Shown here: one piece after another, positions 3,742-60,844 of the stretch
Layout of the letters: every line of letters starts with the position of its first letter
Position numbering within the stretch: the stretch's first letter is position 1
From: an uncultured Methanosarcinales archaeon
GTDB lineage: Archaea; Nanobdellota; Nanobdellia; Woesearchaeales; DSVV01
DNA length: 64,000 bases
Direction of reading: 5' to 3'
Assembly (NCBI GenBank): GCA_964556185.1
Contig: CAZKVI010000003.1
Coordinates: 2,089-66,088, forward strand
Position numbers and translations under genes: made by a program
The notes under the pieces: model-generated
What the model was told of the DNA's origin: nothing
The model's input: only the letters and a program-made list of their open reading frames with translations
Databases searched by the model: none

Positions 3742-6700
3742 CTAAACCTTCTCACAACTTATCAAAACTTCCATCTTTTTAATCTTCTCTTTAGAACAAT
3801 CTTGTAATGTGTCTGCTTCAACACCAACAAAGATCTCAACAGCCCCACATTTGTCTTTAATATCATCTTGCCATTTGATTAACATATCAACATATGATTG
3901 AGTACTCTGCAAATGCAATTTAATATTATCTTTTTTCTCCAATCCTAACTTTTTCCTAAATGCTTGAACTCTTCGCATGACTTCTCTGGAATAACCTTCT
4001 GCATCTAAGTCAGGAGTTCTTGTTTTATCTAAAAACAATTGTCCATGTCTATATTCTGCTTCAACTAAGTTCTCAGGCAGTTCTTTCTCAATAATAAAGT
4101 GCTCTTTTTTCAAACTTACTTTATGTCCATCTAAAACAACAGTATGTGCACCTTTTTCAACATCTGCCAAGATTTTCTCGTCAGCAACTTGTATTAATCT
4201 AGTAATTATTTTAGGAACTAATTCACCATATTCTTGACCAATTGTTCTATGGTTTGGTTTCATTTTTATCTTAACTTCAGTACACTTATCAACTAATTCA
4301 ATATGTTTGACATTTGTTTGTTTTTTAATAGTTTCATCTAACTTAGTAATAGATTCAATAGTATCATTATCAGTAACTACAATCCTAATTTTACCAACAG
4401 GCCATCTTACTCCTAGTTGTGCTCTTTCACGAGCAGCTAAAATACTTTGAATTGTATCTTTTGCAATAGAAAACTCTTTTTCTAAAGAGTTATCAATAAA
4501 CTTTGCATCAAATTTAGGCCAATCAAACAAATGAATACTCTCAACCTCAAGATCAAAGTACTCTTTCAAATCTTGATACATTCTCTCAGCTATAAATGGA
4601 GAAACAATTGCAAACATTTTCAAATTCTCTAAAAATGTTTCAAATATAACATTAAATACAACTTGTTTTTGTTCTTCCAACCCAAGAGCTGCTTTCTCAC
4701 GAACCAATTGAATATATGTTCTTGATAATTCCATAAATATTTCTTCAACTTTCAAAGGAACTTCATTTATCTTATAACTATCCATTAATTCTGTTATTTC
4801 TTTAATACCAGAATGTAATTTTGAAATCATATACTCTTCTTCTTGTTCTAAACAATTCTTATCAATTCCAGTGAATTTCAAACCATTATTCTTAGCTAAA
4901 TCAATTATAAACTTGTGCAGATTCCAATACACACCTAAATTCTTATATTTTAATTTACAGTCATCAAAATTATAATTAATATCAATTCCAGGATTAGCTC
5001 CACCAATCATATAATATCTTAATGTGTCTGCTCCGTATTTATCAACAACTTCTTGAGGTAAAATATAATTACCAAGAGATTTACTCATCTTACGTCCCTG
5101 TGAATCTTGTACAAAACCATGCATGTAAACATTTCTAAAAGAAGGTTTTTCCATGCTTACCATAGAAGCAACATGTAATAAATTAAACCAACCTCTAATT
5201 TGATCTTTTCCTTCTAAAATAAAATCAGGTGGAAACAAATTCTTAAAATTCTCTTCTTTATGTGGATAATCCAAACAAATCCATGAAGTACAACCAGCAT
5301 CTACCCAAACATCTAAAATATCTGGAATTCTTTTTTTAACACCACCACAATCACATTTGATTGTTACTTCATCAATCCAAGGTTTATGTAATTTCTCTAC
5401 TTTTTGTCCTGATAACTTTTCTAATTCAGCAACATCACCGACGACAATATAATTATCACACTCTTCACATCTCCATACTGGTACTGGTGTTCCCCAGAAT
5501 CTTTGTTTTGTAATAGAATTGTCTCTTAAGTTTTCTAACCATGAATTAAAAGCATTATAAGCAGCTTGAGGTACCCATTTAATTTTATTATTCTCTTCAA
5601 TTAACTTTTCTTTCATATCATCTACTTTAAAGAACCATTGTTTTGTAGTTTTATAGACAACAGCTTCATGACATCTCCAACAATGTGCATAACTATGATT
5701 AGTTTTACTTTGTGCAATTAAAGTGCCATTCTCATCCATTAGTTCAACAAATTTCTTATCATCTTTCTTAGCAACTAAACCAGAGAACTTTGAATCATCC
5801 TTTGGATATGTGCCATTTTCATCAATAAGATTAAATGGTTTAATACCTTTTCTTACACATAATTCATAATCAGAATCCCCGCAACCAGGTGCAAAATGCA
5901 CTAAACCAGTACCATCATCTAAATGTACATATTCATCTGATAATAAAACTGTATAAATCTTATCTTGTGTTTTTCTTGCTTCTTTAATTTGAGGAAATGA
6001 ATTTTCAAAAGAAGGAATATATTCTTTGCCTTCTAATTTCTTTCCTTTGAATTCTTCAACAATTTCATAATCTTTTCCTGCTTTTAATTTAATAACTTCT
6101 TCTGCAAGGTCTTTTGCAACAATCCAATGTTCATCACCAACTTTACATTTAACATATTCAAAATCAGGATGTACAACAACTGCTAGATTAAAAGGAATTG
6201 TCCATGGAGTTGTTGTCCAAATGATTAAATAATCATTTTCAGTTCCTCTTAATTTAAATCTTAAATAAATAGAATCATCAGTAATATCTTGGTATTCTAA
6301 TTCATGCTTTGCTAATGCTGTTGCACACGAAGCACACCAAGTCATTGCTCTTTCTCCTTCATACAATCTTTTATTTTCATGTGCTTTTTTAATTAACCAC
6401 CATTCTCCTTCAATAAATTCTTTTGAAATAGGTTGGTAAGCATTTTCAAAGCCCATCCATACACCTAATCTAGTAAAATCCTTATTCATTACATGCATAT
6501 TTTCTATAGATAGTTTTTTACATTCTTCAATAAACTTAGCAACACCAAACTTCTTGATTCCTTCTTTTCCATTAATTCCTAGTTTCTTTTCAACTGCATG
6601 CGCTGTAGGTAATCCATGCATATCATAGCCAGCTCTATCCCAAACATTGAAACCAGCCATTCTTTTATATCTAAGAACCATATCTTTTAGTGATTTGTTC

Positions 6701-43206: not shown

Positions 43207-43300
43207 TATACTAAAAGTGATTAATTTTCGTACAAATTAATCACTTTTGTATATACCAGAGTGTAAAATAATTTGACTTTATTTTACACTTTAAGTATAT
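43207..43300. repeat. palindrome-rich intergenic module, copy 1
   Basis: 'tatactAAAAGTGATTAATTTtcgtacAAATTAATCACTTTTgtatata...AGTGTAAAATAAtttgactTTATTTTACACTttaagtatat'. It shares its ends and core with 50041-50116. Confidence 0.7.
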
Positions 43301-43302
43301 TT

Positions 43303-58715: not shown

Positions 58716-58773
58716 GTCACAATACAAACATTTTTAAATATTCTAAATTTCATTTGAAAAAGACCAGATATTT

Positions 58774-58938
58774 GTGGGGGTAGCCCGTAAGAAGATTCTT
58801 TGGGTTCCCTAGAGCAAAGTCTGGTCAAATGCGCAGGACTTAAGATACACTGAAGACAGCCTTCACGGCAAAGTCTTTGTTTTGAATTAGACATCCTGTC
58901 ACTTAGTGTGTTCGGGGGTTCGAATCCCCTCCCCCACA
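58774..58938 (+). tRNA. tRNA-Leu(UAA) with two introns (about 31 nt in the D arm and 48 nt at 37/38)
   Basis: Acceptor GTGGGGG/CCCCCAC with A73. D arm TAG[intron]CAAAGTCTGGTCAAATGC. Anticodon stem CAGGA/TCCTG with loop CTTAAG|A. Variable arm TCACTTAGTGTGT. T arm GGGGG-TTCGAAT-CCCCT. Confidence 0.8.
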
Positions 58939-59035
58939 TTTTATTCTTTATTTTCTATTTTATGTGCGTACTGCTTTGCAAAGCAAATGCAGTACTCGCT
59001 GACTTTTTCCCAAGTTTTTACGAACGTAAAAAGCT

Positions 59036-59058
59036 GGTGGGGATCATCCTCCCCCACA
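59036..59058 (+). pseudogene. tRNA-Leu mini-helix remnant
   Basis: 'GTGGGGATCATCCTCCCCCACA' retains the acceptor 5' strand, a T-loop remnant and the acceptor 3' strand. 'cctcccccacatttt' repeats 58928-58942 exactly. Confidence 0.45.
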
Positions 59059-59083
59059 TTTTCTTTTTGATTTTGATTAAGAA

Positions 59084-60844
59084 TTAAGGTTCAGTTGGTT
59101 CATCTAGTGATGCACTTGTTTCTAAGCCACTTCTTCTTAAACCTTTAAGAGTATAAGTTGGATCTTCAAGATAACTCTCACACTGTGCTTTAATTCCAAG
59201 AGCAGCCATAAGCATTTTATCTTTATCATCGTAAATTTCTCTAATAGAATCTCTATCTTTCATTGTTCTTGGATTAAATACTTCTGATAAAATTCCATCA
59301 AAAGAAAATTCATCTGCTGATTCAGATTGTTCTGTTACTTCACCAAATCCTCCTTTTGCTTTATAAGTTTCATAAAGCCTATGGATTTTATAAACTTTAT
59401 AATGGCTTAAGGAAGAAGAATCACTTGTATGGTAAGAACACAAATGATCAATTATTTGGTTTGTTTCTTCTAAAGTTTTTCTTACTAATACAAAGTTTTG
59501 AACATCTGGAATTTCACGACCTTCTTCGGCTTTCCATCTTCTGTAAGCATTTACAAGAATAACATTTTTGTATAATCTGTATAATCTTTCAAATCCTGCA
59601 TAATATTTTGTTCCTTTTCTAACATTTATTATTGGGTGTTTTTCAGCTAATGCATTTGCTCTTTCCTTTAATTGAGTTCTTATATCTCTTGTCCCATGTA
59701 AATCTTGTCCACTATATGCTGCAATAATTTCATCATAAGTTATTTCTTCAATTGACTCACCATCATCAGTTAATCTTTTTCTTTTCTTACTTCCATGTTC
59801 TCGTCTGCGAATTTCATCAGTATTTGCATGACAATCTGCAAACTTAACCATTATAGCTCTTTCTATATCTTCTTCTTTTATTGCTCTCTCTTTTCCTCCC
59901 CAACAAATTATTCCATCCCAGTCACTAGGTCTAAATATTTTGTTTACAGAATCATAATAATTTTGTTTAGTCCCCTTTGTCAAAAGATAACTAGTAACAG
60001 CAACTCCTCCAATCATTTCAACCATTGTACTATCAATAGCACCACCAAGGTCTTTCATGTAATTTTCTAAACAATTATAAATCCCATGATCGACAAAAAT
60101 ATCAGCTACTCTTTCCCCTTTTGTCATTAATTTACCTCTAACTTCAGATTTCTCTGAGAAACCATGTTTTCTTATTTCATCCCTCTTTTCTTGGATAAAT
60201 TTCTTCTTCTCAATAATTTCTTCTTCAACTCCCTCTAGTTCTTCCATTCTTTCTGCAACCTTTGCTTTATAACCATCTCTTCTTTTCCCTTCTAATTGTT
60301 TAATACTTCTTGTTAAGAAACCATGTCTTTCTATCAATCCACCAAGTTCTTCATGTTCAGCCATATTATAAATTCTAACAGTGTCTCTGATATAATGATC
60401 AATAAATTCTTCAGCAGTATCATGATATAATGCTGCAATAATTGTTGTAAGATCAGTAACACCAGCTTTGATGAGTGTTCTTGTAACTCTTAGTGGATGT
60501 TGTACAAAAGGTGCTCCTGTTAATTTTCTATCTGGTGCAATTCTATATTTCTCAAAACTATCATACAATGCAACTTTTAAGAATGTTTGTTCATCATCTT
60601 CTAAAGCAGAATAAGCTTCTTCTTGACCTCTATAAAGCATTCCAACAACGCTTTCGAGTTTTTCTTCTTTGTCTTTAAAATCAACTTTAAAGCTATCATC
60701 AGAATCTTTGTTTGTAAAGAAAGCAACCATTCCATGATCTATTCGACTTAAATAAAGCTCATTTCTTCCAATAAGCCTTTCAAGATTTACATGGCCACTA
60801 TGTGGACTTGGACTAACACCCATCTTCTCTTCAAATAATCTCAA
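59084..60844 (-). CDS. HD-domain protein with a RelA/SpoT-type (p)ppGpp-hydrolase-like motif and a long unknown C-terminal region
   Basis: 'FVQHPLRVTRTLIKAGVTDLTTIIAALYHDTAEEF' matches HPLxV...G.D..tI.AALLHDxxED. Confidence 0.6.
   Translation of the reverse strand: MRLFEEKMGVSPSPHSGHVNLERLIGRNELYLSRIDHGMVAFFTNKDSDDSFKVDFKDKEEKLESVVGMLYRGQEEAYSALEDDEQTFLKVALYDSFEKYRIAPDRKLTGAPFVQHPLRVTRTLIKAGVTDLTTIIAALYHDTAEEFIDHYIRDTVRIYNMAEHEELGGLIERHGFLTRSIKQLEGKRRDGYKAKVAERMEELEGVEEEIIEKKKFIQEKRDEIRKHGFSEKSEVRGKLMTKGERVADIFVDHGIYNCLENYMKDLGGAIDSTMVEMIGGVAVTSYLLTKGTKQNYYDSVNKIFRPSDWDGIICWGGKERAIKEEDIERAIMVKFADCHANTDEIRRREHGSKKRKRLTDDGESIEEITYDEIIAAYSGQDLHGTRDIRTQLKERANALAEKHPIINVRKGTKYYAGFERLYRLYKNVILVNAYRRWKAEEGREIPDVQNFVLVRKTLEETNQIIDHLCSYHTSDSSSLSHYKVYKIHRLYETYKAKGGFGEVTEQSESADEFSFDGILSEVFNPRTMKDRDSIREIYDDKDKMLMAALGIKAQCESYLEDPTYTLKGLRRSGLETSASLDEPTEP

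Follow-up and report, generated by a model that had tools for sequence, protein, structure and literature searches.

We report that a tRNA-Leu(UAA) gene lying on a 64,000-nucleotide stretch of archaeal DNA (contig CAZKVI010000003.1; this whole stretch is called the window below) has acquired a new 3' end, and that the old one persists as a stub 120 bp downstream, beyond a short, hairpin-rich insert. Comparison with close relatives shows that the insertion is specific to the lineage of the window. The same gene carries an intron near its 5' end that those relatives lack, and a remnant of a LAGLIDADG endonuclease gene directly upstream. The explanation that we favour, with a probability of roughly 0.5, is that the whole gene was replaced by an endonuclease-linked allele in an exchange with one illegitimate joint, so that the duplication would be a recombination scar and not a working element. 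The window has a GC content of ~31%, and among named organisms its proteins are closest to those of genomes labelled Nanoarchaeota or Woesearchaeota (one metagenome-assembled genome is labelled Methanosarcinales); the host is probably a DPANN-type archaeon. At the 3' end of the gene the following features can be distinguished.

58928..58942, plus strand: repeat copy 1, consisting of the final 11 nt of the functional tRNA, then TTTT.
58943..59047, plus strand: the insert, 105 nt of non-coding DNA with a T-rich tract, hairpin 1, hairpin 2 and then GGTGGGGATCAT.
59048..59062, plus strand: repeat copy 2, an 11-nt stub of the 3' end of the resident tRNA-Leu with its own TTTT.
59037..59058, no strand assigned: mini-helix GTGGGG/CCCCAC, formed by the end of the insert and the stub.
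59063..59083, plus strand: native intergenic flank CTTTTTGATTTTGATTAAGAA, common to the relatives.

The two copies of the 15-mer CCTCCCCCACATTTT are identical. There is no third match with up to two mismatches in the 64 kb (chance expectation 0.07), and two copies occurred in none of 100 shuffled sequences. The source contig of the window shares the 375-nt intergenic region at 100% identity with L001 (SUTE22-1) and L002 (SCRA20-1), which are independent ENA metagenome assemblies, each made from a different sample. The repeat is therefore not an assembly artefact, and the probability that it reflects either such an artefact or coincidence is negligible. Within the insert, hairpin 1 (58968-58995) has 12 bp with one bulged T and can be extended to 58964-58999, and hairpin 2 (59015-59032), which reads TTTTTACG-AA-CGTAAAAA, can be extended to 59010-59037. 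The mini-helix, GTGGGGATCATCCTCCCCCACA (59037-59058), contains the start of copy 2. A stretch of 128 nt here has a folding energy of -35.1 kcal/mol (z = -5.2), a stability reached by none of 200 shuffles, and the structure of the insert ranks about 42nd to 51st among 6388 GC-corrected 120-nt windows of the whole stretch, that is, in the top 1%. An earlier note on this DNA, made from the sequence alone, had described the repeat, the mini-helix and both hairpins, and had taken the two repeats to bracket inserted DNA. All of these elements were recovered, the repeat proved reproducible beyond a single assembly, and the bracketing is borne out by the uninterrupted, single-copy flank of the relatives described below. 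The insert itself matches no Rfam family, since a search at E-values up to 10 returned only a partial tRNA match and noise. BLAST found no further copies of it in the window or in any of the fetched loci, and there is thus no sign of a multi-copy miniature element.

Relatives were gathered by means of the gene upstream of the tRNA, which encodes a protein of 166 amino acids (p166) and of which variants at least 90% identical are found on many contigs. Nine contigs from at least three lineages (L003, L006 and L007-L013) cover the tRNA-Leu gene. All nine have one CCTCCCCCACATTTT, no insert and no D-arm intron, and the single copy leads straight into a short flank that ends in GATTAAGAATT and the stop codon of the convergent gene. 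The site is also empty in L017, but its flank reads CCCCCACATCTTTT, so that the exact 15-mer is missing, and the tRNA-Leu flank is likewise uninterrupted in the more distant L033. The search for such a flank in related genomes had been proposed in the earlier note. Nucleotide identity to the window in the adjacent p166 gene ranges from 92 to 98%, L007 being the closest, which makes one gain more parsimonious than three losses. Locus searches with p166 as the query protein in genome and metagenome collections returned only distant relatives, in which the tRNA is not present.

The identity of the native copy follows from the sequences beyond the two repeats. The sequence after copy 2 (59059-59090) aligns to the flanks of both L007 and L017 (p < 0.0005); that after copy 1 is unlike the native flanks (p 0.4-0.6). 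Since the flank match is found after copy 2 only, copy 2 and its flank represent the resident end of the gene, and the 120 nt to their left were inserted. This lineage-specific insertion of 120 bp supplied a new tRNA 3' end together with a T-run, and left the resident end behind as a stub. A simple tandem duplication was considered and rejected, because the unit of 120 nt compares with a native flank of only 16-46 nt, to which the sequence that follows copy 1 bears no relation.

The insertion is not the only change to this gene, as becomes apparent from its 5' half and from the DNA immediately upstream, where the features are these.

58716..58773, plus strand: foreign upstream segment, which replaces a 58-nt region common to all relatives.
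58774..58938, plus strand: tRNA-Leu(UAA) gene, 165 nt, with two introns.
58782..58812, plus strand: non-canonical D-arm intron, 31 nt, at tRNA position 8/9, the register being ambiguous by up to 3 nt.
58845..58892, plus strand: canonical intron, 48 nt, at position 37/38 (ARAGORN i(41,48) on the D-spliced sequence).

ARAGORN makes no call for the intact tRNA-Leu gene and Rfam matches it only partially (18.7 bits, below the gathering threshold), because the 31-nt D-arm intron adds to the 48-nt canonical intron. When the D-arm intron is removed in silico, ARAGORN recognises a cloverleaf and calls tRNA-Leu(taa). The D-arm intron has a central helix resembling that of a bulge-helix-bulge (BHB) motif: as read from the sequence, exon nt 3-6 pair with the 3' end of the intron, and this helix co-varies, being GGGG/CCCT in the window and GAGG/CCTC in L037. 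Rfam finds four tRNAs in the window, three of which carry introns of 30-52 nt.

The 58-nt upstream segment cannot be aligned to any relative, though the neighbouring genes are 97-98% identical to those of L007. It holds the 3' remnant of a LAGLIDADG gene (~58725-58778), which is ~82-85% identical to the last 45 nt of an open reading frame in L032 and includes an exact AAAAGACCAGATATT. By tblastn the remnant amounts to 18 amino acids (~45 nt), and no intact endonuclease gene is present there. Inside it, ~30 nt before the tRNA, lies a TATA-like TTTTTAAATA (58735-58744), which in intact endonuclease genes is the codon run for a conserved RFLN motif. This element probably doubles as the tRNA promoter, a putative role that would explain why the remnant has been retained. 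The conserved RFLN codons of the family, GATTTTTAAAT, resemble the TATA box of the tRNA.

Intact counterparts of the remnant are informative about its association with the intron. L032, whose p166 is 78% identical to that of the window, has a LAGLIDADG open reading frame between the same upstream gene and tRNA-Leu, running into the tRNA, and its tRNA-Leu has a homologous 31-nt intron at the same site as in the window. Homologues ~61% identical abut tRNA-Leu(UAA) in L037-40 and L041-45, within entirely different gene neighbourhoods, and here too a homologous intron of 31 nt interrupts the tRNA, at 8/9 or 9/10. An intact LAGLIDADG gene is therefore accompanied by an 8/9-intron tRNA-Leu(UAA) in three unrelated contexts (L032, L037-40 and L041-45). 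The 8/9 intron is present in four of four endonuclease-linked alleles and in no endonuclease-less allele, that of L033 included, although the independent lineages are few. Both the endonuclease insertion site and the presumably protective intron fall within the first dozen bases of the tRNA. Judged by these comparisons, the locus in the window appears to be a decayed endonuclease-plus-intron module.

The endonuclease belongs to a LAGLIDADG family of ~200 amino acids, with 89 homologues labelled Nanoarchaeota or Woesearchaeota. In the three contexts with an intact gene (L032 1188-1844, L037 1899-2645 and L041 2501-3290; counterpart in the window 58725-58812) it immediately precedes tRNA-Leu(UAA) and extends into the tRNA, where it ends. 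When viral contigs were searched with a profile of the endonuclease, only distant LAGLIDADG genes were found. The tRNA-Leu of L041, a marine Nanoarchaeota contig, requires the removal of four introns. On the same contig (3330-3425) an 11-nt copy of the tRNA 5' end, GCTCCTGTGGC, is located ~75 nt upstream of that tRNA and is separated from it by a hairpin-rich spacer, an arrangement that is the mirror image of the one in the window.

The tRNA-Leu exons are identical between the window and its relatives, and within the tRNA body only the canonical intron evolves fast. Of its 47 positions, 6 differ between the window and L007, and 4 between the window and L003/L017. The L007 and L003/L017 groups are separated by 3 differences, and the much more distant L033 by 5 from these, so that the window is as far from its closest relatives as L033 is. 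Thin though the evidence from 47 nt is, this divergence favours a gene body that may itself be foreign, which would imply a single replaced tract extending from 58716 to 59047.

Similar events seem to have affected other genes. The earlier note had called tRNA-Leu the third locus in the window with a duplicated gene 3' end, and this is true, the other two being tRNA-Ser and the gene at 45767-46648. At tRNA-Ser (48650-48763, minus strand) the displaced 3' end lies after the gene, within the tract 48545-48763. The tRNA-Ser(GGA) of relatives has a 31-nt T-loop intron and the acceptor strands GCCAGCG/CGCTGGC, and the end of the next gene follows directly (L019 7838-7990). In the window gene the T-loop has no intron and the acceptor strands read GCTGTGG/CCACAGC; beyond the gene come a T-run, a hairpin of 11 bp, a 13-nt exact repeat and the old 3' end with its T-loop intron, displaced 65 nt downstream. 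While both acceptor strands have changed, the interior of the gene is 98% identical to that of relatives, which points to replacement of the gene as a whole, its former 3' end being left as a displaced stub. If the 5' part of the gene is joined to this stub, ARAGORN still recognises a tRNA-Ser. The apex of the hairpin in the tRNA-Ser insert is GCAAAGC, which is also the apex of a hairpin in the tRNA-Leu insert, but the motif occurs 12 times in the 64 kb, and the link between the two inserts is suggestive only.

At the third locus, two copies of the 3' end of the gene at 45767-46648 (72 nt, 81% identity) flank a 1.66-kb cassette (window 46596-48328) of two genes, which encode a protein of 271 amino acids without known function and a DUF6036 nucleotidyltransferase of 206 amino acids. 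The relatives are without this cassette and carry two other genes (253 and 122 amino acids) on the opposite side of the tRNA pair. As the two copies are only 81% alike, they do not represent a target-site duplication; rather, the incoming DNA had its own gene end. The three loci thus appear to follow a common pattern, in which a conserved gene is followed by a donor copy of its end, foreign DNA and a resident stub. Such a pattern would be expected if one side of the exchange were homologous and the other joined illegitimately inside the resident gene.

Among close relatives, what looks like endonuclease-linked replacement of a whole allele can be seen directly at tRNA-Ala(GGC). In L022 (2-470) and L025 (277-1092) this gene is abutted by a different LAGLIDADG gene (254 amino acids) and differs over its whole sequence from the allele found in the window (50270-50341) and in L019, the flanks, including the downstream one, being shared. 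T-loop introns also appear to be gained and lost between close relatives: tRNA-Ala has one of 46 nt in L019-type genomes (L019 ~4600-4760) and none in the window, and tRNA-Leu has one of 31 nt in L033 only (1153-1320).

These results suggest a model whereby foreign DNA replaced the resident tRNA-Leu(UAA) region in the lineage of the window. The donor allele would have consisted of a LAGLIDADG gene directly upstream, a tRNA-Leu with the protective 31-nt 8/9 intron, and the donor's downstream flank. Its linked endonuclease would have broken the intron-less resident gene, and one side of the break would have been repaired by homology and the other by an illegitimate joint. This right-hand joint would separate positions 62 and 63 of the resident tRNA. 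The incoming DNA would have brought its own tRNA-Leu 3' end, a T-run terminator and ~105 nt of hairpin-rich downstream sequence, with copy 1 now forming the end of the gene in use and the resident last 11 nt (copy 2) and native flank persisting 120 bp downstream as a dead stub. D-arm intron, new 58-nt upstream region and 3' insertion all affect the same 165-nt gene on the same terminal branch, and a single event most likely brought in all of 58716-59047. The endonuclease gene would later have been deleted, with its last 45-50 nt remaining, apparently together with the tRNA promoter.

Several observations weigh against this model. No donor allele was found, and neither the junction nor the tRNA ends had an exact match in the viral, metagenome and genome collections scanned for them. 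These scans covered GGTGGGGATCATCCTCCCCCACA (viral and metagenome collections), the tRNA-Leu 3' exon (genome and viral collections), and both the intron-bearing 5' part of tRNA-Leu and the new tRNA-Ser end (viral collection). Normal homing, moreover, would anneal on the identical 3' exon and produce no duplication, so that abnormal end-joining must be assumed, and the endonuclease-bearing tRNA-Leu loci of L037 and L041 are without a downstream stub. With tRNA exons identical to those of the relatives and intron evidence of 47 nt, the 3' insertion could be a separate event. Finally, the model accounts for the exact GTGGGG beside the stub only as donor flank or through selection for a hairpin.

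The earlier note had likened the mini-helix to a tRNA-Leu that lost its middle part, which may or may not be the case. When this GTGGGG is read together with ATC..CTCCCCCACA, 19-20 of 22 positions match a tRNA from which nt 7-58 have been deleted. However, the sequence upstream of the mini-helix is not the resident upstream region, and the parallel leftover at tRNA-Ser is a plain 3' stub that lacks any 5' piece. Donor flank or a decayed T-arm would be equally good sources of the G-run. A scan for the terminator consensus found three sites where 0.4 would be expected, two of which are the 59037-59058 hairpin, one on each strand, as matches to the consensus only. On the minus strand, the hairpin is followed by CAGCTTTTTA and is situated 26 nt past the stop codon of the convergent HD gene. 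Archaeal termination depends mainly on T-runs. The hairpin of stub and G-run, along with the T-runs on both strands, may therefore help to terminate the convergent tRNA and HD transcripts, a putative role that would account for the retention of the stub, not for its origin.

The main rival to endonuclease-linked replacement is the scar of a decayed integrative element. Here, a virus or plasmid with a tyrosine recombinase would have entered the 3' end of tRNA-Leu through a 15-bp attachment (att) core and been mostly deleted, leaving attL, 105 nt and attR, or else a tiny non-autonomous element would have been mobilised in trans; the changes at the 5' end would be unrelated. We take this possibility seriously while doubting it. 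An exact direct repeat with the tRNA 3' end at both borders, combined with an empty site, is the classic att signature, and the inverted repeat GTGGGG..CCCCAC around the core is like a recombinase binding site. The displaced 3' ends at two other loci of the window and the hypervariability of the neighbouring slot would also fit, and in Caldiarchaeum the same model has been put forward to explain tRNA fragments and the gain of an intron (PMC3293823). However, the repeats enclose no open reading frame, no integrase domain was detected among the eight neighbouring proteins scanned, and neither an episomal nor a larger copy of the junction was recovered by exact-match scans of viral and metagenome collections or by BLAST of the fetched loci. 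An att scar would furthermore mean that a single 165-nt gene was hit by two rare and independent events within one short branch, and would leave both changed acceptor strands of tRNA-Ser unexplained. Rather unlikely as an account of its own is the uptake of short foreign chromosomal DNA without any selfish element, the tRNA serving as the anchor for homology and the other side being joined illegitimately. It is consistent with the form shared by all three loci with duplicated 3' ends (gene, donor end copy, foreign DNA, resident stub), with the 81%-identical copies at one of them, which exclude target-site duplication and point to a donor allele, and with inserts of 65 and 120 nt that contain no mobile-element gene. 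Uptake alone nevertheless leaves unexplained why an endonuclease remnant and an intron gain are found on the same branch. This putative uptake also overlaps largely with endonuclease-linked replacement, differing only in the cause of the break.

Other explanations would dispense with a donor tRNA allele altogether. We think it improbable that the insert is a functional RNA or processing element. Such an element could be a long third intron in the T-arm/acceptor region, it could provide an alternative 3' exon, or it could have originated in place as a small RNA or a terminator module. The structure is strong, a hairpin with a T-run resembles a terminator on both strands, this lineage has T-loop introns in tRNA-Leu, tRNA-Ser and tRNA-Ala, and a BHB-like geometry can be drawn across the insert. 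Yet the sole BHB-like solution excises 123 nt and not 120, giving a defective tRNA with a 6-nt T-loop and a 5-nt acceptor strand; the strict BHB scan was noisy and also missed the real, relaxed motifs of this lineage, and is thus weak evidence. The putative intron would begin with T4 and hold several runs of T4-T5, and such runs are archaeal termination signals. In addition, the insert lacks an Rfam match, it is present in one lineage only, and a terminator role is a reason for retention and not an origin. A casposon-type remnant is very unlikely. In that case a Cas1 transposon would have duplicated a 15-bp target site as it inserted into the tRNA-Leu 3' end, and would then have decayed to a 'solo' end. 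The exact 15-bp duplication, with its AT-rich 3' part at the end of a tRNA-Leu, is of suitable length, and the casposons of Methanosarcina do target tRNA-Leu with 14-bp duplications and leave solo terminal repeats (PMC4779613). But no inverted repeat joins 58943-58960 with 59030-59047 (compare ATTCTTTATTTT with the reverse complement ATGATCCCCACC), neither Cas1 nor PolB is encoded within the bracket or next to it, and the duplicated segment begins 11 nt inside the tRNA, not at its last 4 nt.

The lineage also has a family of dual-hairpin indels of 88-91 nt, with the framework TATATAC / TAAAAGT..ACTTTTGTATATACC..AGTATAT and variable hairpin interiors. Members are located at 43212-43302 and ~50030-50130 in the window, downstream of tRNA-Ala in L019, and after window position 57348 in L007, L010 and L003. 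They are present or absent between genomes that are otherwise ~92-98% identical, and are the most strongly structured segments of the window. The tRNA-Leu insert was considered as a member of this family (91-nt form) and rejected, since the framework motifs TAAAAGT..ACTTTTGTATATACC..AGTATAT are missing from 58943-59047. The intergenic region that separates the DUF371 gene from its neighbour (61780-61990) is also strongly structured. Compared with L007 and L017 it shows several indels found only in the window; it matches no Rfam family and may be an unrecognised small RNA. Elsewhere, L019, L021 and L025 have an extra 267 nt with an open reading frame of 72 amino acids between the TFE-like and HIT genes, which the window does not have (after 49379), and the intron of the tRNA at 48773-48897 is 28 nt longer in relatives.

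On its downstream side, the tRNA-Leu gene is bordered by a convergent gene.

59084..60844, minus strand: convergent gene for an HD-motif protein of 586 amino acids (579 from the ATG), in the slot between tRNA-Leu and the PUA gene.

The earlier note had described this as a SpoT-like HD-domain gene of atypical composition, and had proposed a test of whether it is variably present among strains. An HD motif is indeed found, but the likeness to SpoT comes down to a ~50-amino-acid match of RelA/SpoT type, the only family signal in the protein (Pfam HD_4 below threshold; MESH1/RelA E ~5e-5). Its composition is unremarkable, with a GC fraction of 0.32-0.33 against a range of ~0.22-0.38 in the window, where most 1-kb windows have ~0.28-0.35. 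Nor is it a case of plain presence or absence: L007-type relatives (L007 2574-4289) have a syntenic HD homologue with 74% amino acid identity, compared with 86-98% for the neighbouring proteins, and in L017 (802-2730) the slot is filled by an unrelated protein of 642 amino acids. The slot is hypervariable, and the 3' flank of tRNA-Leu is one of its boundaries, an outcome close to the general idea of the earlier note if not to its specifics. PADLOC had no matches for the HD protein and its neighbours. A word-indexed search with the HD protein found only itself, the syntenic homologues having been found solely through gene context.

As a scar, in which part of a tRNA gene is duplicated next to an insertion, the feature belongs to a familiar class and is of modest interest. 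A close parallel is Caldiarchaeum, in which tRNA fragments and an intron were gained through mobile-element integration within near-identical genomes (Sugahara et al. 2012, PMC3293823). In both cases one allele has an extra non-canonical intron and a partial tRNA copy lies as a direct repeat beside the insert, all within a short time frame. In Caldiarchaeum, however, a 5' fragment is 1.8 kb away and the insert codes for a recombinase; in the window an 11-nt 3' stub is 120 bp away, the insert is non-coding, and a LAGLIDADG remnant lies on the other side of the tRNA. Archaeal att duplications in general (SSV-type and pNOB8-type integrases, including gene-less remnants) are similar in that the gene is rebuilt with element-borne sequence and the site is empty in relatives. 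They differ from the window locus, which has no integrase or element gene, only 105 nt between the repeats, no episomal form that could be found, and a repeat of 15 bp where the att core of SSV1 measures 44 bp (PMC3293823). With Methanosarcina casposons (PMC4779613) the locus shares a duplication of 14-15 bp at the 3' end of tRNA-Leu and gene-less remnants, but the window locus has no terminal inverted repeats and no Cas1, and the duplicated segment lies elsewhere in the tRNA.

The endonuclease and intron next to the scar constitute the more novel lead. Free-standing homing endonucleases that engage in collaborative homing with a nearby intron are known from phage T4 (mobE/I-TevIII; PMC2790892) and from a cyanophage (F-CphI; PMC6083498). 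As in these phages, the endonuclease gene lies beside its target, the intron, ~8 nt from the start of the gene, is found only in endonuclease-bearing alleles, and the flank is replaced together with it. T4 SegB is a similar case in a tRNA region. The phage introns are group I introns, whereas that of the window is of the protein-spliced BHB type and interrupts a cellular tRNA gene in a DPANN-type archaeon, where the putative endonuclease is only a remnant. Non-canonical tRNA introns, for which transposition has been proposed, are found in the Thermoproteales (reviewed in PMC4090602 and PMC4033280). There, too, several introns are of BHB type, occupy D-arm and T-loop positions and are gained or lost between close relatives. 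The window differs in coming from a Nanoarchaeota/Woesearchaeota-like lineage of 31% GC and in having one intron class that is physically linked to an endonuclease gene.

Tentatively, and as a serious possibility that still falls short of being probable, we suggest that free-standing LAGLIDADG genes upstream of DPANN tRNA genes drive allele replacement and so spread BHB introns that interrupt their own target site. In the searchable literature we found no description of endonuclease genes tied to specific protein-spliced tRNA introns and allele replacement in DPANN archaea. The only detailed population case that we found, Caldiarchaeum, invoked an integrase, and the link between LAGLIDADG genes and BHB introns in four contexts makes a different mechanism testable. 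The locus described here marks a recombination boundary by a hypervariable slot and forms part of a tRNA gene overlooked by standard finders. It offers a population-level snapshot in which, on one short branch, an essential single-copy tRNA gained an intron, an endonuclease remnant and a new 3' end, with similar changes at tRNA-Ser and tRNA-Ala. If correct, the proposal would show concretely, at the level of DNA, how archaeal tRNA genes can gain non-canonical introns, and would explain the fast turnover of acceptor stems and introns between genomes that are ~92-98% identical.

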